Under the pieces are notes generated by a model. The model was not told the DNA's origin. It searched no databases and was given only the letters and a program-made list of their open reading frames with translations. Below are positions 10,234-63,122 of a stretch of 64,000 nucleotides of DNA, one piece after another. How positions within the stretch are numbered: the stretch's first letter is position 1; each line of letters starts with the position of its first letter. This DNA is from Candidatus Doudnabacteria bacterium RIFCSPHIGHO2_02_FULL_42_25 (GTDB lineage Bacteria > Patescibacteriota > Doudnabacteria > UBA920 > O2-02-FULL-48-8): the NCBI GenBank assembly GCA_001777665.1, contig MFEQ01000006.1:128880-192879 (forward strand), written 5' to 3'. The translations under genes and the position numbers were made by a program.

Positions 10234-10270
10234 TCGAACGTGAGTCACACTCAAGGAGGGTGTGCGAATC

Positions 10271-11364: not shown

Positions 11365-11367
11365 TTT

Positions 11368-12246
11368 TTATGTCAGGTCTAATGCTTCTTTATCTTTAAT
11401 TATTTCATCAATCAATTCCGGAGTTAGCTCCCACTGTTGATCTTTATATTTCAAGACTATATCAGTGCCTGTTTCATCCCCAACCAAATCAAGACTAAAC
11501 CCTTCGCTGAATCCAAACCCATTTTTATCTGGTAAGGACTCTATAAATTTCATAACATCGTCTCGCCCCTTTGTCTTTTCGATGACTTTCATTAAAAAAC
11601 TTTCAGTGACCGTAGCATGAGAACCCAAAAATCGTTGTAATTCATTTTGAAATTTAAGATATTTATCTGGATTGTCAGCAACTAACCGCTGAAAGTTAGG
11701 TAAAATTTCTAAATATCTCCTTACTATCTCTGCAATTCCTGCCGCTTGTCTGCTATAACTGGTGGAGGAATGATCTTTAAGTTTTCGAACAAGATCGTCG
11801 CTTTCTTCTACAGCAAATAATAAATAATCTTTTTTATTTACATAATGATCCATAGCTGCATCTTTAAATTCACCCTCCCAAACAAAATTCAATCTTTCGT
11901 CTACCATGTCCTTTCTTCCAACTTTCACCGATCCGGCCACCAACTCTTTGATGTCTTCAAGAGTTGTATCTTCTCCGATTTCGGGTTGGTCAGCCAACAT
12001 CTGGCGCATCGCGGTTTCCACAGAACGTTCACGGGAGGATCCGAATGCCACAGCCACTTCAGGATTGGGATTTTTTTCTTTGCCTACTTCGGATGCATGT
12101 TTTCTTCCTTTTTCTGTTAAACGCACTGTGGTATCGGGTTGCCCTTCTGCAGCCTTAGCTTTATCATCATGCCTAAAAAATTCCAAATGAATCGAAGCTT
12201 TGGGTAATGACTCTCGACTTTCACGACCTAAATCTCTTGTTTCCAT
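11368..12246 (-). CDS. AT-rich, in-line histidine-phosphatase-like protein (divergent)
   Basis: 292 aa. EFFRHDDKAKAAEG (RH. motif), VAFGSSRERSVETA (second Arg). Native codon usage, same strand as the array. Confidence 0.45.
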   Translation of the reverse strand: METRDLGRESRESLPKASIHLEFFRHDDKAKAAEGQPDTTVRLTEKGRKHASEVGKEKNPNPEVAVAFGSSRERSVETAMRQMLADQPEIGEDTTLEDIKELVAGSVKVGRKDMVDERLNFVWEGEFKDAAMDHYVNKKDYLLFAVEESDDLVRKLKDHSSTSYSRQAAGIAEIVRRYLEILPNFQRLVADNPDKYLKFQNELQRFLGSHATVTESFLMKVIEKTKGRDDVMKFIESLPDKNGFGFSEGFSLDLVGDETGTDIVLKYKDQQWELTPELIDEIIKDKEALDLT

Positions 12247-12259
12247 ATATTTTTATTAA

Positions 12260-13744: not shown

Positions 13745-15138
13745 TTAATTTTCCTTACCATTCCTTTACTTGTATCTACTTCGATCCTGTCACCATTTTT
13801 AAAAATTGTGGTAGCAATTTTGGTTCCAACTATACATGGCACGCCTAGCTCTCTGGAAACTACCGCGGCATGGGACATTAATCCGCCAACGTCAGTAACA
13901 ATCGCTTTGGCTTTACGCATGAGTACAATATAATCCGGTTCAGTCATGGTAGTAATAAGAACTTCACCAGCTTTCATTTTTTCAGGATTACGAGCTGATA
14001 ACATAATTCTGGCCCGACCTATCACTAAAGGTCCTCGGCTGACGGTAATTCCTGTGACACTACCCTGATTCACGTTATTTCGAGTTTGATACTTTTTGGC
14101 GATTTTCGCTGCTGCTCTACCGGTCAGAATCTTGTATTCTTTATTCTTCATCGAGATAACACAAAGTTTTTTTCTCTGATTTATTTCATCATTAGAAAGT
14201 TTTTTTCCAGTGGTATCCAGATCCACCCATTCTTCAGCAGTGTAATATTGTAAATCATTAAGAGATATTCGATATTTTCGGCTAGTCAGCCGAAGCAAGT
14301 TATCAATCTTGTAAAGCGTTCGCCAAACTTCCGCCTTACGATCATCCTGCCACCAGATAGAAAAAGATAAAATCTCTGCCTGATTGATCACAGATTTAGG
14401 TAACTTAAATTTCTTAATAATGTCAGCTTTTCTTTTCTTAACACTCTTTATGTAATTTTCAATTTTTTGTATTTCGAATTTTAACCGTTTTTTATTCAGG
14501 CCTTTCAATCTCTGATAAAAGTCATTTCTAGTCAGTCTTCTGGTTTCGTAATAACTATTTTCAATCCATCCCCAGTTTTGACTATGTTTTTCTAATAATG
14601 TCGTCAGACTTTTTTTATTTCTGGCTCTTAGTCCAGCTTTAAATAATTCTAAATCTGATTCCTGATGGAAGCTCGGTCGATCCAAAGCTAAGAGCGCTTC
14701 CAATACTTCATCCAAATTGTTTTTCGGAACAAATTTACGGATTTGATTTCTTAGAAATACTGGAGCGCTATAATTGGCAGTTTCTGGGATTAATGCAATA
14801 TTCCAAAATTGTATGAATTTATCATAAAGTTCCTTAACAGATTCAGATTGGAACTGATTTAATTCTTTTTTTGCTTTCATATAAACTTTCCAAACTTGTC
14901 TTCTTATCTGTGCAGGTAACAGCCATCTTTTAATAATCTGCAATCCGTGACGTTCGACAGCTACTTTATCCCAACGATAAGTTAATCGATCATGATCTAA
15001 TATTCCAAAGGTCCCTGGCCAAAAAATATCATAAGAGTTCAATTTTCCTGCCCAAGGCAATATAAAAAAAGAATGATACAAAATCTTTGAATCAATCGGC
15101 CCCCACTGTTCCAGTTCTTTCGAAATTGCTCTACTCAT
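13741..15138 (-). CDS. Swivel-domain paralog E (long class)
   Basis: 465 aa. ...VTDVGGLMSHAAVVSRELGVPCIVGTKIATTIFKNGDRIEVDTSKGMVRKIK. Confidence 0.8.
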   Translation of the reverse strand: MSRAISKELEQWGPIDSKILYHSFFILPWAGKLNSYDIFWPGTFGILDHDRLTYRWDKVAVERHGLQIIKRWLLPAQIRRQVWKVYMKAKKELNQFQSESVKELYDKFIQFWNIALIPETANYSAPVFLRNQIRKFVPKNNLDEVLEALLALDRPSFHQESDLELFKAGLRARNKKSLTTLLEKHSQNWGWIENSYYETRRLTRNDFYQRLKGLNKKRLKFEIQKIENYIKSVKKRKADIIKKFKLPKSVINQAEILSFSIWWQDDRKAEVWRTLYKIDNLLRLTSRKYRISLNDLQYYTAEEWVDLDTTGKKLSNDEINQRKKLCVISMKNKEYKILTGRAAAKIAKKYQTRNNVNQGSVTGITVSRGPLVIGRARIMLSARNPEKMKAGEVLITTMTEPDYIVLMRKAKAIVTDVGGLMSHAAVVSRELGVPCIVGTKIATTIFKNGDRIEVDTSKGMVRKIK

Positions 15139-15141
15139 TAT

Positions 15142-16275
15142 TTATTTAATCTTTCTCACTATCCCCTTATTCGCATCTACTTCGACTCTGTCGCCGTCTT
15201 TTAAAAGCTTAGAAGCTAATTTGGTTCCAGTAATACAAGGTATTTTCAGCTCGCGGGAAACAATCGCTGCATGACACGTAATACCCCCTTCATCAGTAAT
15301 GACAGCTTTTGCTTTTTTCATTATCGGAACAAAAAAAGGATTGGTCATTACTGTGACTAAGATATTGCCAGGTTTGAAATTATTAATTTCTTCATTTTTC
15401 AAAATGATCGAAACTGTTCCTTTAATCGAAGCTGGCCCTCGAGATGAGACAGATCCTACAATTTGGTTATGGGTAGTGCCTTTTTCGGGCAAATATTCAA
15501 AACCTTTCTTTTTAAAGAAGGTTTCTCTGGAGACTCCGGTAAAAACTGCTTTGCCAAAAAATATATAACCTTTTAATCTTGAGTGAAGCTCTTTTCGATT
15601 AGGAGAGAATGTTTGATCCGTAAGCATTTTCTCCAATTCTTTGAATGTAATGAAAGCAGAATACTTTGTCGATAAATTTCTCTTTTGCAAAAGCTCATGT
15701 CCTATACTCCGCCAATATTCAACAAGCTCCTCAATGACTCCTTCAGAGACATGTCTTGCATGTATCAATCTTTTCAAAATTTCTTTGGCTTGTTTTGGAT
15801 ATTTCTTATGAATTTCTGGAGCCCATTGATCTTGGGGTAGTAAATAACTCGCAGTATACCACGGATACATTTCTGCGACATAAATTTTTAATTTTTTGAA
15901 CCTTCCATGATCTTTAAAATTTTTATCCTTGTTCGCATTTTGAAGTAACTTTCTAATTTGTTTCGTAAGAAAGATATATCTTTTAATTCTTTGCTCGCTT
16001 AGCACACTAAGTTTGGAGTTAGCCACAGCTTTTATAAACGCTTTGGACTCTTTCGTCAATCGATAAGTTTCTAGCAATCGTCCATTGTAAACCGAAAGTT
16101 GATTTGGAACACCAGTGCCAAAAACTTCAATAAGCCTAGGATTCATATGGACTGACCACCATTCTGCCCACGCTAGTGTAAAATCACGCGTCCAAGCTAA
16201 TTTAATTTCCTTTTTCATGGTTTTATTATGACAAATAACCCCACCTATTGACAAATTGGCTAAAATGGTGTACAA
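15142..16275 (-). CDS. Swivel-domain paralog F (short class)
   Basis: 377 aa. ...ITDEGGITCHAAIVSRELKIPCITGTKLASKLLKDGDRVEVDANKGIVRKIK. By homology to B/C, the start is probably MKKEIKLAW at 16218. Confidence 0.8.
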   Translation of the reverse strand: MYTILANLSIGGVICHNKTMKKEIKLAWTRDFTLAWAEWWSVHMNPRLIEVFGTGVPNQLSVYNGRLLETYRLTKESKAFIKAVANSKLSVLSEQRIKRYIFLTKQIRKLLQNANKDKNFKDHGRFKKLKIYVAEMYPWYTASYLLPQDQWAPEIHKKYPKQAKEILKRLIHARHVSEGVIEELVEYWRSIGHELLQKRNLSTKYSAFITFKELEKMLTDQTFSPNRKELHSRLKGYIFFGKAVFTGVSRETFFKKKGFEYLPEKGTTHNQIVGSVSSRGPASIKGTVSIILKNEEINNFKPGNILVTVMTNPFFVPIMKKAKAVITDEGGITCHAAIVSRELKIPCITGTKLASKLLKDGDRVEVDANKGIVRKIK

Positions 16276-16276
16276 T
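16248..16276 (+). promoter_or_regulatory. sigma70-type promoter of GC-rich cassette 3
   Basis: TTGACA(16248-16253), 17 bp, TACAAT(16271-16276). ~175 nt leader to ATG 16454. Confidence 0.55.
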
Positions 16277-16453
16277 TGATCGTTATAATTAAGTATTTAT
16301 AAATGCCGCAAGGCGTGAATAAATCGATTGTAACTTGTGTACCTTACAATCTAATGGTATGGGTTTATGCCTCAAGTTCTCAAGAGGACTTTGGACACGA
16401 ACCCATACCAAGATCTCAACTACTCACGTTCCACTTTCGTTCTGGAGAGCGAC

Positions 16454-17047
16454 ATGAAAACTCTGACCTATCGGCGCCATTCTTTGAAGGATGGCCACTA
16501 CATCAGCAAGGCTGGCATCGAACTGGCTCGGGATGAAGCTGAGGTGTACGAGAGCAGGCCGGACGCCGTGGAATTCAGCTGCGTTTTCCACGGACCATTC
16601 GTTCGTACTGCTCAGACCGCCCTCGCCTTCTGCTGCGCACTGACAGTGACGCCGCCGGACGCAATGCCGATCATCGAAGAAATCGGCAACGACGCGATCG
16701 TCGCTCTCATCGTCAACGATGCATTCAAGGCTGCGGTCGCCAAGGGCGAGTCCAACTATCAGGCGACCGTCTCGTCCCACAGTGCAACGGAGCTCAGCGA
16801 CCTCTCACGGACGGCGATGGCAGCGGTGACCAAGATGTTCGATGCGATGAAAGACAAGAACGACGTCGGAATCGCGTTTGGTCACAGCCCGATCATCGAG
16901 CTGGCTGTATGCAACATGTCCGGCCTGCCCGACGGCTGGAATGAGCTCAATGAGATGGATGGGCTGGTCCTCGAACAGGATGACGCCGGTCAGATTCGCG
17001 TCGTGGAGCTCATCCGCGCGAACCGCGAGCAGCCGGCGACGGCGTAG
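16454..17047 (+). CDS. GC-rich histidine-phosphatase (PGAM/SixA-like) family protein
   Basis: MKTLTYRRHSLKDGHY (RHS), HGPFVRTAQTALAF, IAFGHSPIIEL. Start moved from track ORF 16367 to the ATG at 16454, which has a ggagag SD; the GC shift begins here. Confidence 0.65.
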   Translation: MKTLTYRRHSLKDGHYISKAGIELARDEAEVYESRPDAVEFSCVFHGPFVRTAQTALAFCCALTVTPPDAMPIIEEIGNDAIVALIVNDAFKAAVAKGESNYQATVSSHSATELSDLSRTAMAAVTKMFDAMKDKNDVGIAFGHSPIIELAVCNMSGLPDGWNELNEMDGLVLEQDDAGQIRVVELIRANREQPATA

Positions 17048-17078
17048 TAGAGATCACCCCCGTAAGGGGCACAACCGC

Positions 17079-17127
17079 AAAAGGCGGGCATTTCCAGGTC
17101 AATATGACTGGACTGCCCGCCTTTTTT
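17079..17127. terminator. Bidirectional terminator after cassette 3 / paralog G
   Basis: aaaaggcgggca...tgcccgcctttttt. Confidence 0.6.
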
Positions 17128-17147
17128 CATTGTTATGTTTTTATCGT

Positions 17148-18644
17148 TTATAACTTTCGAACGATACCCTTATTTGCATCCACTTCGACTTTGTCACCAT
17201 CTTTTAAAACCTTCGTTGCTATTTTGGTACCAATAATGCACGGGGTGCCTAGCTCGCGAGAAACAATTGCTGCATGAGAAGTAATGCCGCCTTGTTCAGT
17301 AATAATTGCCGCAGCTTTTTTCATCGCAGGTACTACATCAACATCTGTAGCGATACTAACCAAAATATCGCCTTGTTTCATCTTCGGCATGTCCTTTGCC
17401 CTGATGATTATTTTCACGGTTCCTTTTGCATAACCAGGTTGAACGGTTTGGCCTGTAAATTCTTTTACATTTTTATTGATCTTCGTGGCTACCATTGATC
17501 TCAACTTTTTTTCCATTGCTCCCATGTATACAGTTTCAAAACCCTCTTCAGTATAAAGGACACAATGTTTTAATCTTATAGACAAAATATTTTTATCTAT
17601 CCTGCCATTTAATAAAGCATCTTTGACTTCTGCTTGAAGCATAAATTGGAGTTGATACCTAGAAATTCCAAGACGTTTTGCAATTTCCTTGAGTAATGTT
17701 TTATGAACAAAATATAAATTTAAAAGCTGGGCGTTTCTGCGAATTAGTTTTGACAACGCAAAATCTTTGGCGTTTTCGAAAAGCCTTTTATATTGCACAG
17801 AGACTTTTAATTTTTTATAGATCTTTTTCTGCTTCTCTCTAGCGGTTTTCAAGTATTGTTCTTGCTTTGCCAATATTTTCTTGGTATTGATTCCTGTTTT
17901 CGCTAATTCGAATAATTCTTTGAGATAGTGATCCACTCCAAAGGGATCAACATTCCCAGCGTAAATGTAGCCGAGATGACCCCATTTTTGCGCATGCTTA
18001 GTTAGGGCATCTTTCAAATGCTGAGGTATAGTTCTCGCTTTAAGAAATTTTTTGTATTTCTCATGAATAACTAGGAAATCTTTCCGCTCATCGGCGACGA
18101 TAGTTTTCCTTGAGGGCGTAGTTAAAACAACAAATGCCTGTTCTGCCTCTTCTTTACTGTTACTAACTGCGTATAAATAGCTCTTTAATTTATTCGTGAA
18201 ATTATTATGAAATAAGTCTGCGGCAACCGGTATCCACCCATAGGTATAAAGTTTGGTCTGAAGCTTATCGGTATCCTTGTACAATTTCCAAAGCTGCTTA
18301 TTATTATATTTCTCAAGCGGTAACTTATCTAATTTCTTGGAAAACAAAATTAACTTATGGGACCAAGAAATAATGTTTCTATCCAGTTCTTTACCGAATT
18401 TAGGTCTTTCTAGCAATGCTCTTATAATTGATTCAGCAACTTCATTGGAGTCTTTTTCTCCAACATAAAAATCCAAAGTAAAACCTTTGTATAGTCCCAA
18501 GAACTTTTTGTATCTTTTTATAAAATCGTAACTCCAATCAGAAGCAAAACAAGAGGCCGGGACTTGGAAAAAATAAATATCGCAATCCGGAATATTTTCT
18601 CCAAAAAGCCACTTGTCCTTATCAAACAATAACTTCGGCTTCAT
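17148..18644 (-). CDS. Swivel-domain paralog G (long class)
   Basis: 498 aa. ...ITEQGGITSHAAIVSRELGTPCIIGTKIATKVLKDGDKVEVDANKGIVRKL. Overlaps H by 4 nt. Confidence 0.8.
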   Translation of the reverse strand: MKPKLLFDKDKWLFGENIPDCDIYFFQVPASCFASDWSYDFIKRYKKFLGLYKGFTLDFYVGEKDSNEVAESIIRALLERPKFGKELDRNIISWSHKLILFSKKLDKLPLEKYNNKQLWKLYKDTDKLQTKLYTYGWIPVAADLFHNNFTNKLKSYLYAVSNSKEEAEQAFVVLTTPSRKTIVADERKDFLVIHEKYKKFLKARTIPQHLKDALTKHAQKWGHLGYIYAGNVDPFGVDHYLKELFELAKTGINTKKILAKQEQYLKTAREKQKKIYKKLKVSVQYKRLFENAKDFALSKLIRRNAQLLNLYFVHKTLLKEIAKRLGISRYQLQFMLQAEVKDALLNGRIDKNILSIRLKHCVLYTEEGFETVYMGAMEKKLRSMVATKINKNVKEFTGQTVQPGYAKGTVKIIIRAKDMPKMKQGDILVSIATDVDVVPAMKKAAAIITEQGGITSHAAIVSRELGTPCIIGTKIATKVLKDGDKVEVDANKGIVRKL

Positions 18645-20107
18645 ACTTTTCTTACGATTCCTTTGTCTGCATCCACTTCAATCATATCCCCATCTTTAAA
18701 AAGCTTAGTTGCGAATTTAGTACCAATGACACACGGTTTCTTCATCTCGCGAGCAACAATTGCAGCATGAGATGTGATGCCTCCACTATCGGTAACGAAC
18801 CCACGCGCTCTGCCCATTGCGGGTAAAACATCTGGAGTTGTAGTAACCGCAACGAGAATATCGTCGTGGGTAACTTTTTGTAGATCTGGAATCCCAAACA
18901 CTAATTTCGCCCGTCCTCGTGCTTTGCCCGGGAATGCAGATTGACCCTCGATGTAATCTTGTTTAATCTCAATGGCTTTTTCAAGAATTCTACCCAAGGT
19001 CGCATCGATTTTATTTGCAGGAATAAACTTAATTTTTCTATTCGAAACAATTTTAAGCACTCGGTGCCTTCTCCTTAAAATTTCAACCGTATCTATTTTT
19101 TTACCTGAAACGAAATCTAAAATCTCGTTCCTTAGTGCATAGCGAAAAAAGTAAACAGGGACCGCATGTTTTTTTGCTAATTGAAGAAATACTGTCTCTA
19201 AAGCATATTGAATGACATGTCGAACATTTAGCCGATAGGCTTTCGTAAACATAAGCGTACGCGCTTGATCAAACATATAAATTTCGTGGTCGGATAACCC
19301 AAGATCTTTTTCTATTCTCCTTTGTTCTTTTTCTAAATTTCTGAAGTAGTTTCTATGTTCATTCAACTGCTCTTGAGCAGTTTTTTCATTCTTGAGAATT
19401 TTCCTCACTCTCTGAATAAAATCTTCATCTGTCCAAAGTGGACCTTGATAACCAAAATTTAACCACTTGTACTTTTTAGCATGGGCTTTAAATTTCTTGG
19501 AAACAACTATTTTATTGAGAGTTTTATACTGCTTTATTATTTCTAATAGTCTCAATAGCTCTGCCCAATTTAAATCAGGTTGATCGGGACTAATCAATAT
19601 TGCCAAATACTTCTGCGTGGGATTCTTGGGAGTACTATATTTCTCTAAAATTCCTGCGAGACGATTGCTGAAAAAATTGTGATCATAATCACTTACAACA
19701 GCTAAGCAGCCCAATCCGTTTAACTCAACGTAATGTTTGAACACTTGTTTTAGCCACGAAAGATATTTCTTATCATTCCACCTTCTCAAATCTTGATCAA
19801 TGACTTGATGAGCAAGTTTAAAGACAATTTGGCCATGATAAATATGCTCTTCTAAATTGCCGTGAGCATCTAGTTTTCCTTTGGTCAATCTATCTTGGAT
19901 TTTTTGGCCGAGTCTATTCCACAATTTAATATCTACACCCCATTGACCTTCATCCTGACTGACATGCATTACGGTGTTACTAAAATAGTCACCGACAAAT
20001 CGCTTTACAGATGGTGAGAACAGAAACCCATCCTCAATCATTGTCCATGAAAACAAGTTCATATTTGTTTCCATTATTAAGTTTTTTATCGAGTGCGGTT
20101 TAATCAT
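18641..20107 (-). CDS. Swivel-domain paralog H (long class)
   Basis: 488 aa. ...VTDSGGITSHAAIVAREMKKPCVIGTKFATKLFKDGDMIEVDADKGIVRKV. Overlaps the ATP-grasp gene by 4 nt. Confidence 0.8.
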   Translation of the reverse strand: MIKPHSIKNLIMETNMNLFSWTMIEDGFLFSPSVKRFVGDYFSNTVMHVSQDEGQWGVDIKLWNRLGQKIQDRLTKGKLDAHGNLEEHIYHGQIVFKLAHQVIDQDLRRWNDKKYLSWLKQVFKHYVELNGLGCLAVVSDYDHNFFSNRLAGILEKYSTPKNPTQKYLAILISPDQPDLNWAELLRLLEIIKQYKTLNKIVVSKKFKAHAKKYKWLNFGYQGPLWTDEDFIQRVRKILKNEKTAQEQLNEHRNYFRNLEKEQRRIEKDLGLSDHEIYMFDQARTLMFTKAYRLNVRHVIQYALETVFLQLAKKHAVPVYFFRYALRNEILDFVSGKKIDTVEILRRRHRVLKIVSNRKIKFIPANKIDATLGRILEKAIEIKQDYIEGQSAFPGKARGRAKLVFGIPDLQKVTHDDILVAVTTTPDVLPAMGRARGFVTDSGGITSHAAIVAREMKKPCVIGTKFATKLFKDGDMIEVDADKGIVRKV

Positions 20108-22360: not shown

Positions 22361-22431
22361 TCGGGGTGCCGGGAATTGAACCCGGTCTACACCCACCCCA
22401 TGGGCGCGTACTACCGGTATACTACACCCCG
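22361..22431 (-). tRNA. tRNA-Pro (anticodon GGG)
   Basis: Hand-folded. Acceptor CGGGGTG/CACCCCG, anticodon stem CGCCC/GGGTG, loop ATGGGGT (U33, GGG, G37), T-arm CCGGG-TTCAATT-CCCGG, discriminator A. 71 nt, no encoded CCA. Confidence 0.8.
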
Positions 22432-23614
22432 TTCTTCGCAGACTCTATTATAGTTAATTTTTAGAGATAAAAAAAGAGGTCCAACTAGTTGCTAGTTGTA
22501 ACCTCGGTCCTCTTCGTGAGGATCGTCCTCGTCGCCAGGATCAGGACCGCTCTCGAAATCTGGCGGGGATTTCGAGTCAGACTCAGTCTGCTCAGGTACC
22601 AATGGTTCGGGACTCGACATACTCATCTTCTCTCTACTGTTTCAAACCGGGCGGCCAATCGTCGACCAAATCGGTCAAAGCGCGCCCCAACATTCACCTG
22701 AAGCTCGAAGGACTGGCTCGGCAGTTGTCGCTGCGGACAACACCTCCGATTGTGACCCGGCTGCCGGCATAGTGCACAAATCTTCTTTCTTCGTCCCTGG
22801 ATGTTCGACATGGACACTCCTATGTCTGGGTCTTGGGTTTGCAGGGTTGGATCGTAATGGGCATTCCCTTCTGACACCGACCACAGATTTTTCCTTCACG
22901 ACCAGCCTCGTCGTGAGATGGGTCAGGCTCATATCCGGCATTGCGTTCGAGTGTTGTGGGCGCCATGTTCACCTGCCTATCCGGCGTAGCGTTCGTTGAC
23001 GATGTCTTCATCCGGATCAACGTATTGAACCGGAGGGTGCCTTAGTTCTTCCTCCTGTGGAGTCATTCGTTCATCGTTCGACTGCTGGTGTGCGTCCATA
23101 ACCTGGCCTTCCTCCAGTATCAGCTGGGACATATGTTTCCTCCGTGACCTTGGTCTTGCTGTCTAGTGTAGTGTTGCTGAATTCACATCTCATGTTCCTA
23201 TTTTTCATAAAATCTGAATTCAGACTTGGCCAACAAAAATCCGACCACTTCGGTCGGTTCATTCAGCTTGATCTTTGATCGTTGTTACGTGATCATTGAC
23301 GCTTATCTGAACCGACTCGAACTGGGACTTGGTCAACCTTAATAATCCCCAAAACGATTTGGGCGATAGAGGAGATCAAGTTGTGGATAGTTAGTCGATT
23401 CATCCCGTTAGAAATAATGATTAGTTGCTTGATAATAATCGTTTATAATTGCCACACTAGATTATATTTTAACAATAGCTTTTTACTATGTCAAAATTTC
23501 TAACGGTATTCATAAACTTAGTAATATTATATAGCAGCAAAAAAACTAAGTCAACAAAGCCTATCACAATAGTTACCTATTTGCCCCATATGGGGCAAAT
23601 AGGTACTCACCGGA

Positions 23615-23645
23615 AAAGAAAAAAGGTCAAGAACGGGTCTTGACC
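23615..23645 (-). terminator. Rho-independent terminator (minus) after ORF 23662-23946; adjacent perfect palindrome 23576-23603
   Basis: ggtcaaga-acggg-tcttgacc stem with a T-run on the minus strand. Neighbouring cctatttgcccca-tat-ggggcaaatagg 12-bp stem. Confidence 0.5.
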
Positions 23646-23661
23646 TAAGGACTGAATCAGG

Positions 23662-23946
23662 TTACAGCCAGAGTGACAGCGGAGTGGGCTGCCATGTGCG
23701 ATTGAAGGCACGATGGCGCCTAGCCACCTCGGCGCGTTCACGTCTGACGTCGTTGAGGTACGTCAGATGGGTGATCTGCGTTTGTGCAGCTCTCAGCTGA
23801 TCTTCCTCAAGCCTCGTCCGCTCCGGCTTGGATTCAAAGCGTCGGACCTTTCTTAGCAGCGTTCTGATTTCCTTCTGACGACCGCTGATCGTGCGTAGGA
23901 GCGGATCCCGCATTGCAATGCCCGGTGTTTTCACAAACATTAGCAT
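23662..23946 (-). CDS. Hypothetical Arg-rich small protein in GC-rich island
   Basis: 94 aa ORF followed by a terminator. No motif. Coding status uncertain. Confidence 0.3.
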   Translation of the reverse strand: MLMFVKTPGIAMRDPLLRTISGRQKEIRTLLRKVRRFESKPERTRLEEDQLRAAQTQITHLTYLNDVRRERAEVARRHRAFNRTWQPTPLSLWL

Positions 23947-24663
23947 CTCCTCTACGACATAAACTCTGACGCTTTGCTTCCGGGTGGGGTCGAACCGACA
24001 TCGATGGGTCTTGCCGTTTTGCGACTGCCCGTCGGTGACGGGACAGCCTTGGGCTGCTTACCCTCTACAGCTGGATCGGGATCCACAGGACGGGTAACCT
24101 GCTCGGGTTTCAACGACATATTGTTATTCCCCCTTAAAGCTACGGCAGATAAAAAAAACACCAGCCGGATGGCTGGGTTCGGTTTGCGAAAATTTCTATG
24201 CAAACTCAACCAACCACCTCGGGATGGCTAAACCAAAAATAGAAATTCGGTCTGATTGATTGCATAACAAAAGTATTATAATGCCTAGGAACCAGAGAGT
24301 CAAGGCATAAAAAAGGACCCAGGCACCCTGAGAAGGGTGCACTGGGCTCAAGACGTACGACGCTAATTCCTCGGCGTCTTACGTCGATCGACTTTAGGCC
24401 GCAATCCAAGGAAACATGTCTGGTCCGATAACGCCTTTGGTGTCGTCCCGCTAGATACGCAGGCACAACTCAGGACGTCGACTCCCGCTTGCCTGATGAC
24501 GGTGACCTCTTTGTGATCACCAACTTCGATGAATTTTGCGGCAGTTTCTTCAGCTCTGGCCAATCAATCCTCCTATCAAGCAAACAAAAACACCGGCCAA
24601 CTGGGTCAGTGTTTGCATTTGCAAACCTTGAGTAAGTTTACATGTAGTTTAGCTTTGTGTCAA

Positions 24664-24755
24664 TAGGCGCGTCTGGCGTTATTCGTCGGCGCCACGCGTA
24701 TCGTCTGACGGTTACCGATACGCGCTGCGCTGCCGTACAATCATTAACGCATTTT
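24664..24755. repeat. GC-rich palindromic repeat element (copy 1) immediately 3' of parB
   Basis: cgttattcgtcg-gcgccacgcgtatcg-tctgacggttac-cgatacgcgctgcgc...ttaacgcatttt. Second, inverted copy at 52971-53040. Confidence 0.6.
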
Positions 24756-24756: not shown

Positions 24757-25689
24757 TTACTCTTGAAGTCTCTTCACTTTGTCCAAGAAATTTTGGAGTT
24801 CTTCTTGGGAGAAAAATTCAATAGTGATTTTTCCGGCTTGGCCGCTTTTTTGAACCTTGACTTTGGTCCCAAATTTGCTGCGTAGATCACTTTCCAAAGC
24901 TGCAGACTCAGGATCAACTGGGCCTCGAGGCGCTTTGACCTGTTTCGGACGTTCCAGCATTTCTCGAACTTTGTCTTCGACTTGGCGCACAGTCATTTGT
25001 TGCAGGACGATCATATCGTACAAAGCCAACTGCTTCTCCATTCCTGGTAAAGCCAGGATAGACCGCGCATGCCCTTCAGTGATTTTACCTTCGGCGAGAG
25101 CATTTTGAATTTTCAGTGGCAAATTCAAAAGTCGCAACATATTCGTCACAGTTGTGCGACCCTTACCCACTTTCTTCGCAACTTCTTCTTGAGTCAGTTT
25201 GTACTGATCAATCAATTGTTTATAAGCCAGGGCTTCTTCGATCGGGTCTAGGTTATGACGCTGAATGTTTTCAATCAAAGCCAATTCCAATTTGTTCTGC
25301 TCTTCCAGATAATCGCGAATCACCACAGGGACTTTCGCCAACCCGGCCATTTTTGAAGCACGGAGTCTGCGTTCCCCGACGATCAACTGAAAAGTGCCAT
25401 CAGGAAGTGGAACCACAACCAACGGTTGCAGGATGCCGTGTTCTTTGATGGAAGCAGATAATTCAGCTAACTTTTCATCGTCAAAGACTCTTCGCGGCTG
25501 CCAGGGATTGGGTTTGATAATCTCGACTGGAATTTCCGCCATGCTGACCATGGGCAGATTCTCCGGTACGGCTTCCTTCACCGGTTCGGCCAGAGGCTCG
25601 GCCAATTCCATGGGGCTAGCAGGTGGCAGCTCTGGTGTTTCTACAATTTGAGAAATTGGTTCTAAAGGTTGTTGTGCTGGTTCATCCAT
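24757..25689 (-). CDS. parB: ParB/Spo0J partition protein with Pro/Glu-rich N-terminal extension
   Basis: QPRRVFDDEKLAELSASIKEHGILQPLVV...GERRLRA (ParB box II) ... HTH KVGKGRTTVTNMLRLL. No parA adjacent in this window. Confidence 0.85.
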   Translation of the reverse strand: MDEPAQQPLEPISQIVETPELPPASPMELAEPLAEPVKEAVPENLPMVSMAEIPVEIIKPNPWQPRRVFDDEKLAELSASIKEHGILQPLVVVPLPDGTFQLIVGERRLRASKMAGLAKVPVVIRDYLEEQNKLELALIENIQRHNLDPIEEALAYKQLIDQYKLTQEEVAKKVGKGRTTVTNMLRLLNLPLKIQNALAEGKITEGHARSILALPGMEKQLALYDMIVLQQMTVRQVEDKVREMLERPKQVKAPRGPVDPESAALESDLRSKFGTKVKVQKSGQAGKITIEFFSQEELQNFLDKVKRLQE

Positions 25690-32837: not shown

Positions 32838-32912
32838 CTGCCCGCCCGCAACGCCTGAGCAAGACCGCAAGCAAAAAAATCAGGCTTGCGATGGCGGGCG
32901 GGCCATTTCTTT
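32838..32912. repeat. GC-rich long hairpin repeat (copy 1) in leuS 5' region
   Basis: cccgcccgcaacgcctgagcaaga...tcaggcttgcgatggcgggcggg. Reverse complement of 63058-63122 has the same arms with a different loop. Confidence 0.65.
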
Positions 32913-42343: not shown

Positions 42344-43105
42344 TCATTGAGCCCAAATGATATGGGTGATGACTGCGTTACCGTTGCCTAAATCTTTGAC
42401 GAACAGAGACGGCTTGCCATCCGATGAGGTTCGGATCGAACGACCCCAGTCCGAAGCTTCTTCGCCGAATTCTTGTCCTCTAGAATTAAGTATGGATGAA
42501 CCGATAGTTGTAGTGCTGTCCAGATGCGCATAAATTAATTCCAGCTCTTCATAATCATGGGCATTTGGATGTTGGTTTGTCGAAGGGTTGCTAGTGTAGT
42601 CCATGCAAGTATTCATATTTGGGTTATCAAAATTCTCATCTTGGTGATCCAACCCAAATGTATGACCGACTTCCTGGCAGACCACAAATTGTTTCCAGGC
42701 AGGAGTGTTGTATCGAGAAGTGTTGAAATAAGTATCATTCATTTTCACGGTGCCGGCAGTAATATGAGATCCAGAAATCCAAATTGAAGCAATGCCGAGC
42801 CAGCCGTTGTTGCCGTATCGGCTGTTACAAACTTGCACCTGACCAGACACAGCCTTACAGTTTTTTGGATTGGCACTGCCCGGAACCACTGTGGTGTCCA
42901 AAACTGTAGACTGACTCCAATCGGCTGAAGCTACATTCAAATAGCTGTCCCAGCTAGTGCTAAGATTATCGCCTAGTTTAAGCGTAAAAGGATTGGAAGT
43001 TCTGGCCCAATGGTAGCCACCCCAAGCATGGTTAGCAGAAGCCAAGTTAATGTTAAAAGCTAATGCAAAAAGGCCAAACAGAGACAAAATACGAAATAGT
43101 TTCAT
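42344..43105 (-). CDS. Secreted metzincin-like protease with variant QExxHxxGxxH motif
   Basis: Signal peptide MKLFRILSLFGLFALAFNINLASA. CQEVGHTFGLDHQDE fits HExxHxxGxxH except first H is Q. Met-turn candidate NTCMDY. Confidence 0.6.
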   Translation of the reverse strand: MKLFRILSLFGLFALAFNINLASANHAWGGYHWARTSNPFTLKLGDNLSTSWDSYLNVASADWSQSTVLDTTVVPGSANPKNCKAVSGQVQVCNSRYGNNGWLGIASIWISGSHITAGTVKMNDTYFNTSRYNTPAWKQFVVCQEVGHTFGLDHQDENFDNPNMNTCMDYTSNPSTNQHPNAHDYEELELIYAHLDSTTTIGSSILNSRGQEFGEEASDWGRSIRTSSDGKPSLFVKDLGNGNAVITHIIWAQ

Positions 43106-43174
43106 GTTTTTTCTTTAAGATTAATTGCTTCTTTTATTATATTGCTATAGCAATTTACTGGCAAGCAATAATTA

Positions 43175-43217
43175 AATTGCTACCTATTTTATACAAATGT
43201 AAAAAATAGAGTAAAAT
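43175..43217. promoter_or_regulatory. Palindromic operator-like motif, copy 1 (upstream of protease gene)
   Basis: aattgctacctattttatacaaatgtaaaaaatagagtaaaat. Shared with 44037-44080 and 44753-44793. Confidence 0.55.
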
Positions 43218-43229
43218 TATTCTAAATCA

Positions 43230-43985
43230 TCAAGTTTGTCCATAAATTTTTAATGCTTTTTGATGAAGCGTCTCTAATCGATCCATAAGCTCTCGTTTAA
43301 TCTGAAGCCCGGTTGATATATATTCACCAAAGTTAAAAATAATTTTATTTTCATTCTCTAACTTTGATAAGGATTCTAAACATCGATTCAAAAAAGTTAA
43401 AGATAGTGTATAGCCGACCCATGAAATATTCCAAGCCAAATCATTAAAATTTTCAATTACATCTTCAAAATCATAATCGTTCGAGGCATAAACAATTTTG
43501 GACGCTACATAATTGCAATTTTTTAAGATTCTAAATAAATGAATAAACTTGTGCCTCTCATACAAATCACAGCTCCTTTTTAGCATGTCAATGCTCCAAA
43601 CTTTAGCGATTTTGTATAACTTATCATCTTTCCATTTCTCGCGTCGTTCTTGAAACCGCATTTCTGATTCTAATGAAAAATTATGGTCTGAAAATAACTC
43701 ATCCTCAATTAAAGCCATTTCTCGCCGAAATTTAAGATACTCAAAGTCCTCAATCATTTTTTTCCTAACAATTTCTTCTAACTCTTTAGACCGTTGCTGC
43801 TCTCTCTGATTCCAATATTCCTCATCCAAGGTTCCTTTAAAATACTCTTCAAAATTATCATGCCACATGGCACGAAAACCGAGGTTATATTTAAATAACT
43901 CCTGCTCCAGTTCTTTTACAACTTCCAGTTCCTCTTGCGAATAATTGTTTCCAGCGTTCCACATATAATAAATAAAACGGCTCAA
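43230..43985 (-). CDS. Hypothetical protein
   Basis: 251 aa ORF preceded by operator motif copy 2. Confidence 0.5.
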   Translation of the reverse strand: MSRFIYYMWNAGNNYSQEELEVVKELEQELFKYNLGFRAMWHDNFEEYFKGTLDEEYWNQREQQRSKELEEIVRKKMIEDFEYLKFRREMALIEDELFSDHNFSLESEMRFQERREKWKDDKLYKIAKVWSIDMLKRSCDLYERHKFIHLFRILKNCNYVASKIVYASNDYDFEDVIENFNDLAWNISWVGYTLSLTFLNRCLESLSKLENENKIIFNFGEYISTGLQIKRELMDRLETLHQKALKIYGQT

Positions 43986-44036
43986 TCCGCCGCTTTTATT
44001 AATATAAACCCAAAGCTCGGGTTTGTCAATTTGAAG

Positions 44037-44080
44037 AATTGCTACCTATTTTATACAAATGTAAAAAATGAGTAGCAATT
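44037..44080. promoter_or_regulatory. Palindromic operator-like motif, copy 2
   Basis: aattgctacctattttatacaaatgtaaaaaatgagtagcaatt. Confidence 0.55.
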
Positions 44081-44083
44081 TTC

Positions 44084-44749
44084 TTAAATTAAATTTTTCT
44101 TCTTGAAAAAATTCTTCAAAACCTTTTCGTCTTCAATATCCATGCGATTTATCTCCATCAAAGTCACATATCGCGATATGTAATAATAACTGGCCACATA
44201 TTCTACTACCTTACGGGGATCATAAGGATAAAACCACAAAGTTCTCTGTAATGGGTAGAAACCTAACTCCTTCAATTTTCTTCGTAATAAATCAGCACTT
44301 TGTCTATACTGCTTGGTGGGAATATCAGCTGCTACTTGCCACCATTTACCATCCCAAAATTTTTGTTTTTCGATTTCTGCCGTCGCGATATTAATTTTTT
44401 GTGCTCGCTTTTTTCCTTCATCAGTTATAAATGCAAAAATTTCCTTGTTTGTTTTTTTAAATTTAACTAGTCCAGATTTTTTCAAATAGAAAAATGATCT
44501 GGTAATTTGATCGGCTTTTTCTTTTTTCGTCCACTTTTTTCCAGGATATTTATTCTTATTTAATCGACCAACCGCTGAGAATAAATTTGGAGCAACAACC
44601 GCGACTGCGACAATCCCAGTAATCGCGACTGACGCAAGGACAATATTCCTAATTGTTTTCATCTTCTCAATTTGAGCAGGAGTGAAAACTGACTGCTTAT
44701 CTTCGGGAATAGCTTGCGAAATGGCTTTATTTATTTTGAAATATGTCAT
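44084..44749 (-). CDS. Hypothetical single-TM protein, weak PaaX_C-like motif (candidate membrane-anchored regulator)
   Basis: TM helix IRNIVLASVAITGIVAVAVVAPNLF. C-terminal LKELGFYPLQRTLWFYPYD resembles the PaaX C-domain; weak. Confidence 0.4.
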   Translation of the reverse strand: MTYFKINKAISQAIPEDKQSVFTPAQIEKMKTIRNIVLASVAITGIVAVAVVAPNLFSAVGRLNKNKYPGKKWTKKEKADQITRSFFYLKKSGLVKFKKTNKEIFAFITDEGKKRAQKINIATAEIEKQKFWDGKWWQVAADIPTKQYRQSADLLRRKLKELGFYPLQRTLWFYPYDPRKVVEYVASYYYISRYVTLMEINRMDIEDEKVLKNFFKKKNLI

Positions 44750-44752
44750 ATA

Positions 44753-44793
44753 AATTGCTACCTATTTTATACATTTGGATAAAATAGGGTAGA
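44753..44793. promoter_or_regulatory. Palindromic operator-like motif, copy 3 (best palindrome), 4 nt upstream of start of 44084-44749
   Basis: aattgctacctattttatacatttggataaaatagggtag: arms ctacctattttat / ataaaatagggtag. Confidence 0.55.
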
Positions 44794-44861
44794 ATTTTTA
44801 AAGTATATTATTGCTTAAGGATTATTGTCAAGATTTTTATTGTCAAATGGCTGACAAATAA

Positions 44862-48260: not shown

Positions 48261-49357
48261 TGTCCTGGTTCATATGATACCCTGCAATTGACTGGAAGAA
48301 ATTATGAGGGGCAGATACTCTGGTAGGACTATGACAACATATGGATATATCCTTCCTGGAGCAAGTAAGATTGCAAGATTAGCAACTAGTCTAAGCTCCA
48401 AAGCCAAACATCGAATTAAAGTCATTGACTGGTATAGAGCTCATGGCAAGAACAAAAGCTTAACAGCTAGGTATTTTGGAATGAACCGAGAGACATTGGA
48501 TATCTGGCTTGATCGGTTCAAGCTTCAAGGCATCAAAGGCTTGGAGGATCGATCGCATAGACCTAAACATTTAAGAACTACGAGCACGCCTTTGCCAGTC
48601 CAAGATGAAGTAGTCAAACTCAGAAAAGCTTTCCCGTATTACTCTAAATACAAAATCGTTCATTTGCTCTCAACGAAAATTAGTTCATCAACTGTCGGTA
48701 GGATATTAAAAAAGAAAGATTTAATTAATCCCAAAGTATCTAGAAAGAAAATTAAAGCAGCTAAGCACCCCAAGAAGCGATTTCCAAGGGAGTTAGTCGT
48801 AAATATGCCAGGAAAACTAATCCAAATTGATACTAAGCATCTGAGAACCTTTCAGGGAGTAAAGATCTACCAGTTCACGGCTATTGATGTTTTAACCAAA
48901 GTTCGAGTGCTTTGGGTGAGTACACATTTATCATCTGTCATGGCTGCAAAGTTCTTAAGGCACTGTGTTAGAAGTTTCCCCTTTAAGATCGAGAATATTC
49001 AAACAGACAATGGTTCAGAATTTAACAAACATTTTGACCGTTTGTGCCAGAAGCTTGGAAACACCCATTATTACATCGAGGCACACAGTCCCCAGCAGAA
49101 CAGCTACGTCGAACGCTCACACTTAACTGATGAGCTTGAGTTTTATCAGCAAGGTAACATGCATAATACTTTGGGCCAATTGCTTCCAAGGCTTAAGGCT
49201 TGGGAACATCAGTACAATCACCAAAGACCACATCAATCGCTCAACTACTTAACACCGATTCAGTATTTAAAAAAGTATCAAACTGAAACTTTAGCCACTA
49301 AAGATTACGTTGCATTACAAACTAACTAACTGTCGGATATCTATCTGAACCTAGACA
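48261..49357 (+). mobile_element. IS481-family-like insertion sequence with ~22-bp imperfect terminal IRs and 5-bp TSD (gatag)
   Basis: IRL tgtcctggttcatatgatacc (48261-) versus rc of IRR tgtctaggttcagatagatatcc (-49357). gatag at 48256-48260 and 49358-49362. Confidence 0.7.
48304..49329 (+). CDS. DDE transposase (HTH + rve integrase core)
   Basis: N-terminal HTH. Catalytic core IQIDTKHL...FTAIDVLTK...IQTDNGSEF...SPQQNSYVERSH (D, D, 35, E). Confidence 0.85.
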   Translation: MRGRYSGRTMTTYGYILPGASKIARLATSLSSKAKHRIKVIDWYRAHGKNKSLTARYFGMNRETLDIWLDRFKLQGIKGLEDRSHRPKHLRTTSTPLPVQDEVVKLRKAFPYYSKYKIVHLLSTKISSSTVGRILKKKDLINPKVSRKKIKAAKHPKKRFPRELVVNMPGKLIQIDTKHLRTFQGVKIYQFTAIDVLTKVRVLWVSTHLSSVMAAKFLRHCVRSFPFKIENIQTDNGSEFNKHFDRLCQKLGNTHYYIEAHSPQQNSYVERSHLTDELEFYQQGNMHNTLGQLLPRLKAWEHQYNHQRPHQSLNYLTPIQYLKKYQTETLATKDYVALQTN

Positions 49358-52349: not shown

Positions 52350-52994
52350 ATGAGTTTAAAAACTTATCACAAAAAACGAAAATTTAACGAGACACCGGAA
52401 CCAAAAGGTAGAGCTGTTAAAACAGCAAAGGCTTTACACTTTGTAATCCAAAAACACGAAGCAACTCGGCTGCATTATGATTTTCGGCTCGAGCACCGAG
52501 GCGTACTTTTGAGTTGGGCCGTACCGAAAGGTCCAGCTTTAAGAGTAGAGGATAAAAGATTGGCTATGATGGTCGAGGATCATCCGGTCGACTATATGAA
52601 ATTTGAAGGCACGATTCCAGAAGGGAATTATGGCGCTGGGACCGTCATGGTTTGGGATTTTGGGAATTATTTAGCGCTTGGAGCGGATTCATTAGCAGAA
52701 AGCGAAAAATTGATCAAAGCCGGGCTGAAAAAAGGAGAATTGAAATTTATATTGAATGGCAAAAAACTTCAGGGCGGATTTGCATTGATCAAAACTAAAT
52801 TTGGCGGAGCCAAAAATTCTTGGCTCCTGATCAAAGAAAAAGATCAGTATGTCAAAAATGTTGATGTGACAAAGAAAGCTAGGTCAGCACTAACTGGGAA
52901 ATCTATGACGCAGATATCTAAAGGCGATAGAATCTGGAAAAGCAATAAGAAAAAGCGTCTTAAGTTTATCGGCAGCGCCACGCGTATCGGTTAA
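52350..52994 (+). CDS. LigD 3'-phosphoesterase (PE) domain protein, stand-alone
   Basis: KRKFNETPEP...HFVIQKHEATRLHYDFRLE..GVLLSWAVPKGP LigD_N/PE signature. Start at 52350. Confidence 0.8.
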   Translation: MSLKTYHKKRKFNETPEPKGRAVKTAKALHFVIQKHEATRLHYDFRLEHRGVLLSWAVPKGPALRVEDKRLAMMVEDHPVDYMKFEGTIPEGNYGAGTVMVWDFGNYLALGADSLAESEKLIKAGLKKGELKFILNGKKLQGGFALIKTKFGGAKNSWLLIKEKDQYVKNVDVTKKARSALTGKSMTQISKGDRIWKSNKKKRLKFIGSATRIG

Positions 52995-53040
52995 CGTAAG
53001 ACGATACGCGCAGCGCCGACGAATAACGATTAACGCATTT
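52971..53040. repeat. GC-rich palindromic repeat element (copy 2) spanning PE stop to ligase start
   Basis: ggcagcgccacgcgtatcg-gttaacgtaaga-cgatacgcgcagcgc-cgacgaataacg-attaacgcattt. Inverted relative to 24664-24755. Confidence 0.6.
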
Positions 53041-62668: not shown

Positions 62669-63079
62669 ATGGCTAGTACTTTTGGGGACAAATTAATACT
62701 AATTGTTGAAGACGAAGACGCCTTAGCCGAGGTTTTGGCTGATACTTTAGAGATCGAAGGATTCAAAGTCAAAGTTTGCGGCAATGGTGAAGAAGGTCTG
62801 AAGTATGCGTTAGAAAGCCATCCGGACTTGATACTTTTGGATATGCTGATGCCGAAAATGAATGGTATGACCATGCTCACCGAACTTCGCAAACAGCAAA
62901 AATCCCCCATCAGTCCCGTGATTTTCTTTACCAATCTCAACCAGCTGGACAAAATCGCCAGCGCCGTCGAAGAAGGTGCTGAAGGCTACATGATCAAAGC
63001 CGAAACCTCACTCGAAGAAATAGTCAAAAAAGTTATAGATTTTTTCGAAAAAAAGGCCCGCCCGCCATCGCAAGCCTGA
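62669..63079 (+). CDS. Stand-alone CheY-like response regulator receiver
   Basis: LILIVEDEDAL...DLILLDMLMPKMNG...MIKAE. Intact acidic pocket and conserved K. Confidence 0.85.
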   Translation: MASTFGDKLILIVEDEDALAEVLADTLEIEGFKVKVCGNGEEGLKYALESHPDLILLDMLMPKMNGMTMLTELRKQQKSPISPVIFFTNLNQLDKIASAVEEGAEGYMIKAETSLEEIVKKVIDFFEKKARPPSQA

Positions 63080-63122
63080 TAGTATTGCTTTAATTCTTGC
63101 TCAGGCGTTGCGGGCGGGAAGC
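63058..63122. repeat. GC-rich long hairpin repeat (copy 2, inverted), overlapping RR stop
   Basis: cccgcccgccatcgcaagcctga...tcaggcgttgcgggcggg. See 32838-32912. Confidence 0.65.

Follow-up and report, generated by a model that had tools for sequence, protein, structure and literature searches.

Three consecutive minus-strand genes of Candidatus Doudnabacteria bacterium RIFCSPHIGHO2_02_FULL_42_25 are each preceded by a copy of the same palindrome of about 40 bp. What is the palindrome for, and what reads it? The genes lie in a 64,000-nucleotide (64-kb) stretch of contig MFEQ01000006.1, which we analyzed over its whole length and call the window. The gene furthest upstream (gene 3) encodes a membrane-anchored protein related to the repressor PaaX. 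From comparison of sequences and predicted structures we consider it probable that the palindrome is the cognate DNA site (operator) of the gene 3 protein, and that this is a membrane-tethered, cis-acting mini-PaaX. The genes and palindromes are arranged as follows.

Copy 3 of the palindrome: 44753..44796, arms CTACCTATTTTAT and ATAAAATAGGGTAG with center ACATTTGG, between the predicted −10 box and the ATG of gene 3
Gene 3: 44084..44749, minus strand, membrane-anchored mini-PaaX of 221 amino acids
Copy 2 of the palindrome: 44037..44080, 4 nt past the gene 3 stop codon and separated by 8 nt from the −35 box of gene 2
Gene 2: 43230..43964, minus strand, protein of 244 amino acids belonging to no known family
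Copy 1 of the palindrome: 43175..43217, 13 nt past the gene 2 stop codon and separated by 11 nt from the −35 box of gene 1, distal arm degenerate
Gene 1: 42344..43105, minus strand, protein of 253 amino acids with a signal-peptide-like N-terminus

The repeated palindrome is real. The 19-mer TTGCTACCTATTTTATACA has exact matches on the plus strand of the window at 43177, 44039 and 44755, compared with a chance expectation of 0.00 in 100 shuffles. A repeat search of the window gave a 49-nt family at 43173-43221, 44035-44083 and 44751-44799 with identities of 78-86%. The dyads are about 44 bp in length with start points at 43175, 44037 and 44753, and are 716 and 862 bp apart with the genes in between. 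Copy 3 ends 3 nt short of the ATG of gene 3 (44749), copy 2 is 73 nt ahead of that of gene 2 (43964, a start backed by the public gene call and by a homologue at locus L002), and copy 1 is 70 nt ahead of that of gene 1 (43105). A preliminary description of this DNA had placed three motif copies upstream of these genes, in agreement with these data. It had also spoken of a near-perfect inverted repeat. The dyad is genuine, but its symmetry is uneven among the copies. The gene-proximal half TGTATAAAATAGGTAGCAATT (sense strand) is invariant across all three, whereas the distal half is degenerate and in copy 3 contains a one-base bulge. The clearest dyad is that of copy 2, TTGCTA-N28-TAGCAA, where 16 of 19 arm positions are complementary; its opposite arm is found on the minus strand at 44060-44078 as TTGCTACCTATTTTATACA with three mismatches.

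A scan of the window for long palindromes revealed a further site, located 19.6 kb from the three-copy cluster.

Fourth site: 23574..23605, perfect 32-bp palindrome TACCTATTTGCCCCATATGGGGCAAATAGGTA

The outer nine bases of each arm of the fourth site are those of the motif in the same register. In the window the pattern CCTATTT-N14-AAATAGR matches only the fourth site, copy 1 and copy 3, and all five occurrences of the half-site TACCTATTT in the 64 kb fall inside the four sites. A fifth site is present on a second metagenome contig (L051, JGI contig Ga0209542_10001025, 66.6 kb), where positions 700-760 carry one further true copy, which over 39 nt has 97% identity with copy 1. This copy is located upstream of small GC-rich open reading frames encoding a 96-amino-acid helix-turn-helix-like protein, an 81-amino-acid protein and an 81-amino-acid ribbon-helix-helix-like protein. 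There is no gene 3 homologue within the 8.5 kb examined on this contig, and nothing but the motif is common to it and the window. The sites are thus not restricted to a regulon of the three genes.

How are the palindromes placed with respect to transcription? We searched for promoters as matches to the sigma-70-type consensus, which are not mapped transcription starts. The four best matches around the sites each have 11 of 12 consensus positions, and all are on the minus strand.

Gene 3 predicted promoter: 44802..44831, minus strand, TTGACA-18-TATACT, 11/12, directly upstream of copy 3, whose center is at about +20
Gene 2 predicted promoter: 44001..44029, minus strand, TTGACA-17-TATATT, 11/12, directly downstream of copy 2, whose center is at about −65
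Gene 1 predicted promoter: 43136..43164, minus strand, TTGCCA-17-TATAAT, 11/12, directly downstream of copy 1, whose center is at about −68
Predicted promoter at the fourth site: 23526..23554, minus strand, TTGACT-17-TATAAT, 11/12, just downstream of the palindrome, whose center is at about −70
Second predicted promoter near the fourth site: 23466-23494, TTGACA-17-TAAAAT
Canonical intrinsic terminator: 23624..23646, minus strand, directly upstream of the fourth site and 20 nt from it

Copy 3 occupies the interval from the predicted start to the ATG, corresponding to some 45 nt at the 5′ end of the predicted gene 3 transcript. Copies 1 and 2 are upstream of the −35 boxes of separate promoters, and only copy 3 is downstream of a −10 box. 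The order on the minus strand at the fourth site is canonical terminator, palindrome, promoter. Since that site has a neighboring canonical terminator, its palindrome belongs with the promoter; termination there does not require it.

What kind of protein is encoded by gene 3? A protein identical to it (100%) is on record for Candidatus Doudnabacteria bacterium RIFCSPHIGHO2_02_FULL (assembly GCA_001780055.1). Its N-terminal tail of ~33 amino acids leads into a transmembrane helix (~36-57), after which come the recognition helix (75-91), the wing (95-108) and a PaaX_M domain (PF20803, the central Cas2-like domain; 131-207). The last was found in Pfam with E = 1.3e-13 and 51.3 bits against a cut-off of 24. 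The AlphaFold model (predicted local distance difference test score 85) has a helix at 75-91, a β-hairpin at 95-108 and a helix at 110-122, followed by a domain of βαβαβα topology. The top Foldseek match to this model in the PDB is PaaX of E. coli W (8a39, E = 1.4e-5). Next come the PaaX-like 3l09, winged helices of the ArsR, MarR and PadR types and then Cas2 proteins, where the matches to Cas2 and SSO8090 (3exc, 5zyf and 6jhz) are weak (E ~0.1). Using hhalign, residues 85-199 align with residues 60-170 of E. coli PaaX over 111 columns (E = 2.5e-5), a region that spans the end of the recognition helix, the wing, a WDGKWW motif and the Cas2-like domain. A search of PDB sequences with the family profile found nothing. 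The third gene had been thought to encode a single-pass membrane protein with a weak PaaX-C-like motif. The domain is in fact PaaX_M; Pfam gives no match to PaaX_C, and the chain ends at residue 221 right after the Cas2-like domain. The single transmembrane segment stands. A 19-residue hydrophobic segment is present in 24 of 24 aligned members of the family with a mean hydropathy of 1.8-2.6, and most of the 24 have an excess of Lys and Arg on its C-terminal side. The C-terminal part of the protein therefore probably faces the cytoplasm.

The protein belongs to a large family of Candidate Phyla Radiation (CPR) bacteria, among which the Doudnabacteria are counted. A profile search gave ~1,760 clusters (at 50% identity) with E ≤ 1e-10, mostly of 180-230 residues, and there are up to five copies in a genome. 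PaaX_M is annotated for all the listed homologues, which are named nothing beyond 'hypothetical' or 'PaaX'. We retrieved 47 related loci by the protein profile alone, so the flanking DNA is an unbiased sample. Nearly every homologue has a long near-perfect palindrome ~0-90 nt upstream of its start, centered on CAATTG, CATATG or CAAATG and rarely on TAATTA; examples are TTGTCTAGCACTTGTCGCAATTGCGACAAGTGCTAGACAA (L016) and AATTCTTAGCATTTTTTCACATATGTGAAAAAATGCTAAGAATT (L023). A cognate second palindrome is found ~0-100 nt past the stop codon, sometimes overlapping it. Under a stringent definition (arms of at least 13 with at most 2 mismatches) the upstream copy is present in 21/40 genes, the downstream copy in 26/41 and both in 19/39, and several genes outside these counts carry visibly imperfect palindromes. 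Only 12 stringent palindromes occur elsewhere in the 289 kb of family loci, almost all of them extra cognate copies or the flanks of homologues that the search pattern missed, and shuffles at five-fold coverage of the loci gave a single one. The conserved unit is palindrome-gene-palindrome, as judged from these loci.

The palindromes are 34-50 bp in length and locus-specific, with a core RCAWWTGY common to the whole family and arms that every paralogue has to itself. Five family loci (L011, L026, L038, L040 and L047) come from a single genome (contigs CAYIHW010000xxx), and their arms differ from each other, which looks like a set of orthogonal regulator-operator pairs. Loci L003, L004, L019, L022 and L045 are syntenic orthologues. 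Their position is kept, with the same upstream genes and an inositol monophosphatase downstream in four of the five, and their arms are quite different. Retention of position with divergence of the arms indicates that protein and site change together, and that the module is not mobile. Orthologues are syntenic across genomes though the proteins have diverged to ~40-45% identity; paralogues are 30-50% identical. The genes past the second palindrome have no function in common: among their products are inositol monophosphatase, YebC, a methyltransferase, FBP_C zinc-finger proteins, RecG, Maf, an APH-type kinase and a PMT glycosyltransferase.

In a few loci the number of cognate copies rises to three or four, and neighboring genes are bracketed too; these extra copies are lineage-specific additions. 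Those of L006, L023 and L035 bracket a small open reading frame and a secreted LCAT-like lipase of ~900 amino acids with Ig-like domains, the extra palindrome in front of the two being at L006 665-716, L023 659-700 and L035 80-119. Those of L021 bracket a PEP-utilizer-domain protein, of the same kind as an array at 6183-20107 in the window. The lineage-specific targets may tend toward secreted enzymes, the lipase of L006, L023 and L035 being paralleled by the secreted hydrolase-like gene 1. Two perfect palindromes of 50-52 bp and of the same class (L036 1521-1572 and L047 2724-2773, with CATATG and TAATTA centers) have arms unlike those of the nearby family gene, and may be sites of other paralogues.

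PaaX itself provides a precedent for a site of this shape. The operator of E. coli PaaX is TGATTC-N27-GAATCA, a 39-bp split palindrome through which PaaX represses its own promoter by steric hindrance (PMC9493321). It resembles copy 2 (TTGCTA-N28-TAGCAA) in geometry only, the two sequences being unrelated. PaaX (8a39, 3l09), the phenylacetyl-CoA-responsive repressor of E. coli and Pseudomonas, has the recognition helix, wing and central Cas2-like domain in common with the gene 3 protein. In contrast to PaaX, the gene 3 protein has no ligand-responsive PaaX_C domain, its first ~60 winged-helix residues are replaced by an extracytoplasmic tail and transmembrane helix, its family retains a Cas2-type Asp and QRTLW, and its sites lie on both sides of the regulator gene, each paralogue having its own. 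No paa genes are nearby; the neighborhood in the window includes PNPase, tgt, a membrane protein and the metzincin-like gene 1. The score against TIGR02277 is 25 bits compared with a cut-off of 264.55. The gene 3 protein would work like PaaX with its operator. It is no orthologue of PaaX, however, as it lacks three defining features: the C-terminal domain, an equivalog-level score and a paa context. Given the recognition helix, wing and Cas2-like domain, the geometry of the PaaX operator and the presence of each homologue's own palindrome, an autoregulated dimeric regulator is the best-supported reading. The idea of a dimeric site and an autoregulated regulator, already put forward in the preliminary description, is therefore retained, but the palindromes are not merely operators upstream of three genes.

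How might such a regulator work? A dimer would grip the ~40-bp dyad by two outer half-sites TACCTATTT, which are ~22 bp apart center to center, or about two helical turns. These flank the family-wide CAWWTG core, which could serve as a contact common to the family or as a flexible hinge. The recognition helix, wing and Cas2-like dimerization domain would be turned to the cytoplasm, with the single transmembrane helix as a tether. Diffusing only within the membrane, the protein would act mainly in cis on sites near its own gene; since a membrane-bound protein can reach only DNA that is brought to the membrane, sites clustered at its own gene make sense. Binding at copy 3, over +1 to +45 of its own transcript, would lead to autorepression. 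Copy 2 past the stop codon would close a bracket around the gene, and may allow a repression loop of ~720 bp (716 bp) or serve as a roadblock that insulates the module from its neighbors. The sites centered some 65 to 70 bp upstream of the predicted starts could couple the strong promoters of gene 2, gene 1 and a transcript starting at 23.5 kb in a stretch poor in open reading frames to the same protein, with either sign of regulation.

Looping between operators is familiar from LacI, GalR, DeoR and λ CI, whose cognate operators are a few hundred bp apart; the pairs here are separated by 716 and 862 bp. To our knowledge, family-wide bracketing of a regulator's own coding sequence by its operators has not been described. 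Membrane-bound regulators are also well known. ToxR, CadC and TcpP are single-pass proteins with a cytoplasmic DNA-binding module that act on nearby promoters and must find their DNA from the membrane. They resemble the gene 3 protein in having one transmembrane helix joined to a cytoplasmic DNA-binding part (predicted for gene 3). In ToxR, CadC and TcpP an OmpR-type winged helix at the N-terminus precedes the transmembrane helix and a sizeable periplasmic sensor, whereas the order in the gene 3 protein is reversed, the external part is only ~33 residues and the fold is of the PaaX/Cas2 kind. The gene 3 protein has no match to the OmpR-type domain (Trans_reg_C).

The way in which the palindromes evolve gives a more complicated picture. 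Across 35 loci only the core Y-R-C-A-W|W-T-G-Y-R is strongly informative, the arms having 0.04-0.8 bits. We compared cognate copies within loci, and found 554 pairs unchanged, 44 changed in one arm and 21 changed in both arms with pairing kept. The positions most stable between cognate copies are 1-3 and 11-14 from the center, which fits discrete contact patches such as a bound dimer could make.

A number of observations weigh against an operator of this kind, and several of them favor a different view in which the palindromes act when folded, as a DNA cruciform, a single-strand hairpin or stem-loops at the ends of mRNA, recognized and perhaps cut by a protein combining a winged helix-turn-helix with a Cas2-like domain, with autoregulation at the level of RNA or structure. 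The 21 compensated double changes compare with ~1 expected by our own estimate if the arms changed independently. Complementarity is at least 97% of positions out to 16-17 bp from the center despite the low family-wide sequence information, a percentage that is descriptive only since the 35 loci were chosen for palindromy. Both in the downstream palindrome of L044 and at the fourth site the outer arm is kept and the whole inner stem is swapped, relative to copies 1-3 in the latter case, with the replacement fully compensated and self-complementarity perfect. A dimer that reads two patches needs none of this compensation or wholesale swapping of stems. These changes exceed what two half-sites require, so the simple picture of operators upstream of three genes is incomplete, and copy 3 alone lies downstream of a −10 box.

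The protein itself raises similar doubts. The family keeps an invariant AADIPT, whose D142 is the same in all 24 aligned members, and LQRTLW. We take these, from our own reading of the Cas2 consensus, to correspond to the Asp at the end of strand 1 and the Q-x-S-V-F motif of Cas2. PaaX has SEGLD and LAPSLM at these places (hhalign), and so has lost the active-site-type Asp and the Q-x-T/S-hydrophobic-aromatic motif that the family keeps. This suggests a role beyond dimerization, which the operator reading leaves unexplained along with the compensated evolution of the arms. Moreover, the N-terminal domain of PaaX has no Pfam match in the gene 3 protein, and of the winged helix nothing aligns with PaaX but the wing and the end of the recognition helix. 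The counterpart of PaaX residues 1-59 is the tail and transmembrane helix, leaving a helix-turn-helix that is incomplete by PaaX standards and a DNA-binding element that would lie within ~17 residues of the membrane. The spacing of the sites is a further difficulty. There is no constant distance between palindrome and consensus promoter across the family loci. In at least 10 loci the downstream palindrome sits between real housekeeping genes that converge (the next genes encoding a GT4 glycosyltransferase, an ABC ATPase, BipA, a solute-binding protein, MsrB, ribosomal protein L20 and a HAD hydrolase), so it cannot be a promoter operator there. An insulating roadblock after the stop codon would explain these downstream copies.

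Does the folded form then provide a better explanation? The common core could be a loop. Copy 3 at the start of the mRNA and downstream copies 0-50 nt past the stop codon could both be transcribed, and hairpins are predicted with −9 to −25 kcal/mol and z-scores of −3.6 to −6.7. Yet the stems are AT-rich and that of copy 1 is weak (−9.1 kcal/mol). Copies 1 and 2 are upstream of their own promoters, the fourth site lies between a canonical terminator and a promoter and is probably little transcribed, and no Rfam family matches. Wobble-type mismatches have no strand bias, with 25 G:U on the sense strand and 20 on the antisense. Lack of bias between G:T and A:C indicates a constraint on DNA rather than on one RNA strand. 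The palindromes are perfect on two strands, without the variable loops and bulges that are usual in RNA hairpins. The lack of strand bias, the two-strand symmetry and the untranscribed appearance of the fourth site argue against the RNA version, but not against a DNA cruciform. Correction of quasipalindromes by template switching is a known mutational process that restores the complementarity of arms without selection, and could maintain it here. Overall we regard action in a folded form as unlikely, though less so than the other alternatives.

Given the compensated arms and the retained catalytic-type residues of Cas2, there is still scope for a system that recognizes or processes hairpins or cruciforms. 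The C-terminal domain of the gene 3 protein has the fold of Cas2 and VapD, together with the Cas2-type motifs (the AADIPT Asp at the end of strand 1, and Q-R-T-L-W); unlike those proteins, it is joined to a winged-helix element and a membrane-spanning helix. Among the repeat families of the window there is no CRISPR-like array of regularly spaced short repeats, and no search was aimed at cas1. In its most specific form the proposal would be not of a conventional operator but of a new kind of self-bracketing CPR gene module, whose membrane-tethered protein has a still-functional Cas2-like domain that recognizes, and perhaps nicks or processes, its private palindromes as cruciforms or hairpins at the two ends of its gene and at a few further loci, self-complementarity being selected for folding. 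We think it rather doubtful that this is the case.

A gene flanked by matching palindromes also calls to mind a mobile element. The unit might be a selfish or formerly mobile single-gene module, comparable to IS200/IS605 or RAYT/REP, with the palindromes as its ends and the extra copies in the window as solo ends. As in those systems, the gene is small and has a cognate hairpin-capable palindrome on either side, different from one family member to the next. The unit is self-contained, occurs amid unrelated housekeeping genes in different genomes and is present in several diverged copies per genome (up to 5), each gene with its own matching pair of ends; the fourth site and the L051 copy beside small GC-rich open reading frames could be solo copies. 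But unlike REP/RAYT and IS200/IS605 the gene 3 protein is membrane-anchored and has no HUH/Y1 transposase, and Pfam and NCBIfam reveal no transposase, HUH or recombinase domain in it. No identical or near-identical copies were seen, the paralogues and their ends being as divergent as described above. The syntenic orthologues appear to be vertically inherited, and viral contigs hold the motif only as chance matches. There are only four copies in the 64 kb, few and local, and all are adjacent to promoters. We consider a mobile origin very improbable.

Could the palindromes be generic intergenic punctuation, i.e. bidirectional terminators, insulators or upstream promoter elements bound by another factor or by none, so that adjacency to gene 3 is incidental? 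Both copy 1 and copy 2 fall precisely in the space that separates a stop codon from the next −35 box, and neither gene 3 nor gene 2 has another terminator-like hairpin directly after it. Elsewhere the downstream copies between convergent genes are where terminators would be expected. However, palindromes of this class hardly occur outside the flanks of one gene family, and their arms are specific to each paralogue. The stems are not followed by a T-run, and ordinary GC-rich T-tailed terminators exist in the same genomes, one of them 20 nt from the fourth site. Incidental punctuation is therefore a poor explanation in our judgement, and we hold it to be improbable.

A number of other candidates were considered and rejected. 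An RNA element was set aside, with no Rfam match at the sites at either gathering or E-value thresholds and no strand bias of wobble pairs. An intrinsic terminator was rejected given the AT-rich stems without a T-run that were unflagged in a terminator scan, the fourth site having its own canonical terminator. The end of a mobile element or phage was examined using the exact 19-mer in metagenome contigs. This gave seven matches, of which only L051 is a true copy, sharing the motif and nothing else; viral contigs gave two chance matches. PADLOC found nothing. Integron attC sites were considered and discarded, as there is no integrase beside the array and no core of GTTRRRY type, and the transposase at 48304-49329 is of IS481/IS3 type. 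A table relating recognition-helix residues to arm sequence gave only lineage-confounded hints of a code.

We now turn to genes 1 and 2, the other putative targets in the cluster. Gene 2 has a homologue among the family loci only at L002, where it is directly upstream of its regulator, and searches of PDB sequences found nothing for it. Gene 1 had been described as a secreted metzincin-like protease. The signal-peptide-like N-terminus supports secretion, but the matches to Reprolysin and Met-zincin are all sub-threshold, and in the motif QEVGHTFGLDH a Gln replaces the first His of HExxH. The protease label should therefore be taken with caution, and perhaps the protein is inactive or relies on a different ligand; a PDB sequence search gave only a meaningless match. 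A conserved regulon was rejected, as homologues of genes 1 and 2 are not conserved neighbors in related loci and the downstream genes are functionally unrelated.

The surroundings of the fourth site have some unusual features. The stretch 22432-24700, between a minus-strand tRNA gene (22361-22431) and parB (24757-25689), is poor in open reading frames and has 50-55% GC compared with ~38% nearby. It is divided by the AT-rich promoter region containing the fourth palindrome, and gives no match in Rfam. Of the minus-strand transcript running from 23.5 to 22.4 kb only the two ends fold unusually well (z = −4.9 and −4.1), with a T-tailed hairpin at the 3′ end. Short open reading frames hold CX2CX4HX4C-like strings in two frames, and the stretch may be degraded foreign coding DNA. 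As a direct repeat, an 86-nt GC-rich element at 24669-24754 and 52955-53040 is 74% identical; 59 nt inside it are moreover 88% complementary from one copy to the other. The first of the two begins 3 nt past the parB stop codon and is not recognizable as a parS site.

Elsewhere in the window the tandem array at 6183-20107 comprises about nine paralogous minus-strand genes encoding proteins of ~350-500 amino acids with a C-terminal PEP-utilizers mobile domain (PF00391), one of which has a weak match to sigma-70 region 4. There is an FMN riboswitch at 4042-4161 (minus strand, 98 bits). The transposase at 48304-49329 (plus strand; rve, HTH_28 and HTH_32) is ~3.5 kb from the palindrome cluster and has no palindrome copies beside it. 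Inverted repeats of 74 nt at 32838-32911 and 63048-63121 are 86% complementary, with the arms 30 kb apart.

In summary, membrane-anchored mini-PaaX proteins form a large family in the CPR, and private palindromes bracket their genes. We found no published description of this family in the literature on PaaX with Cas2, on PaaX with Patescibacteria or on palindromic transcription-factor motifs in CPR. The CPR (Patescibacteria) have tiny genomes with few recognizable transcription factors, and their gene regulation is almost uncharted. Each member of this family comes with an obvious candidate target of 40 bp that can be synthesized, making regulator-operator pairs of uncultivated bacteria testable in vitro or in E. 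coli. The family offers natural orthogonal pairs of protein and palindrome, and a membrane-anchored DNA-binding design unlike that of ToxR and CadC. It also links the PaaX-type repressors to Cas2, with the catalytic-type residues of Cas2 retained.

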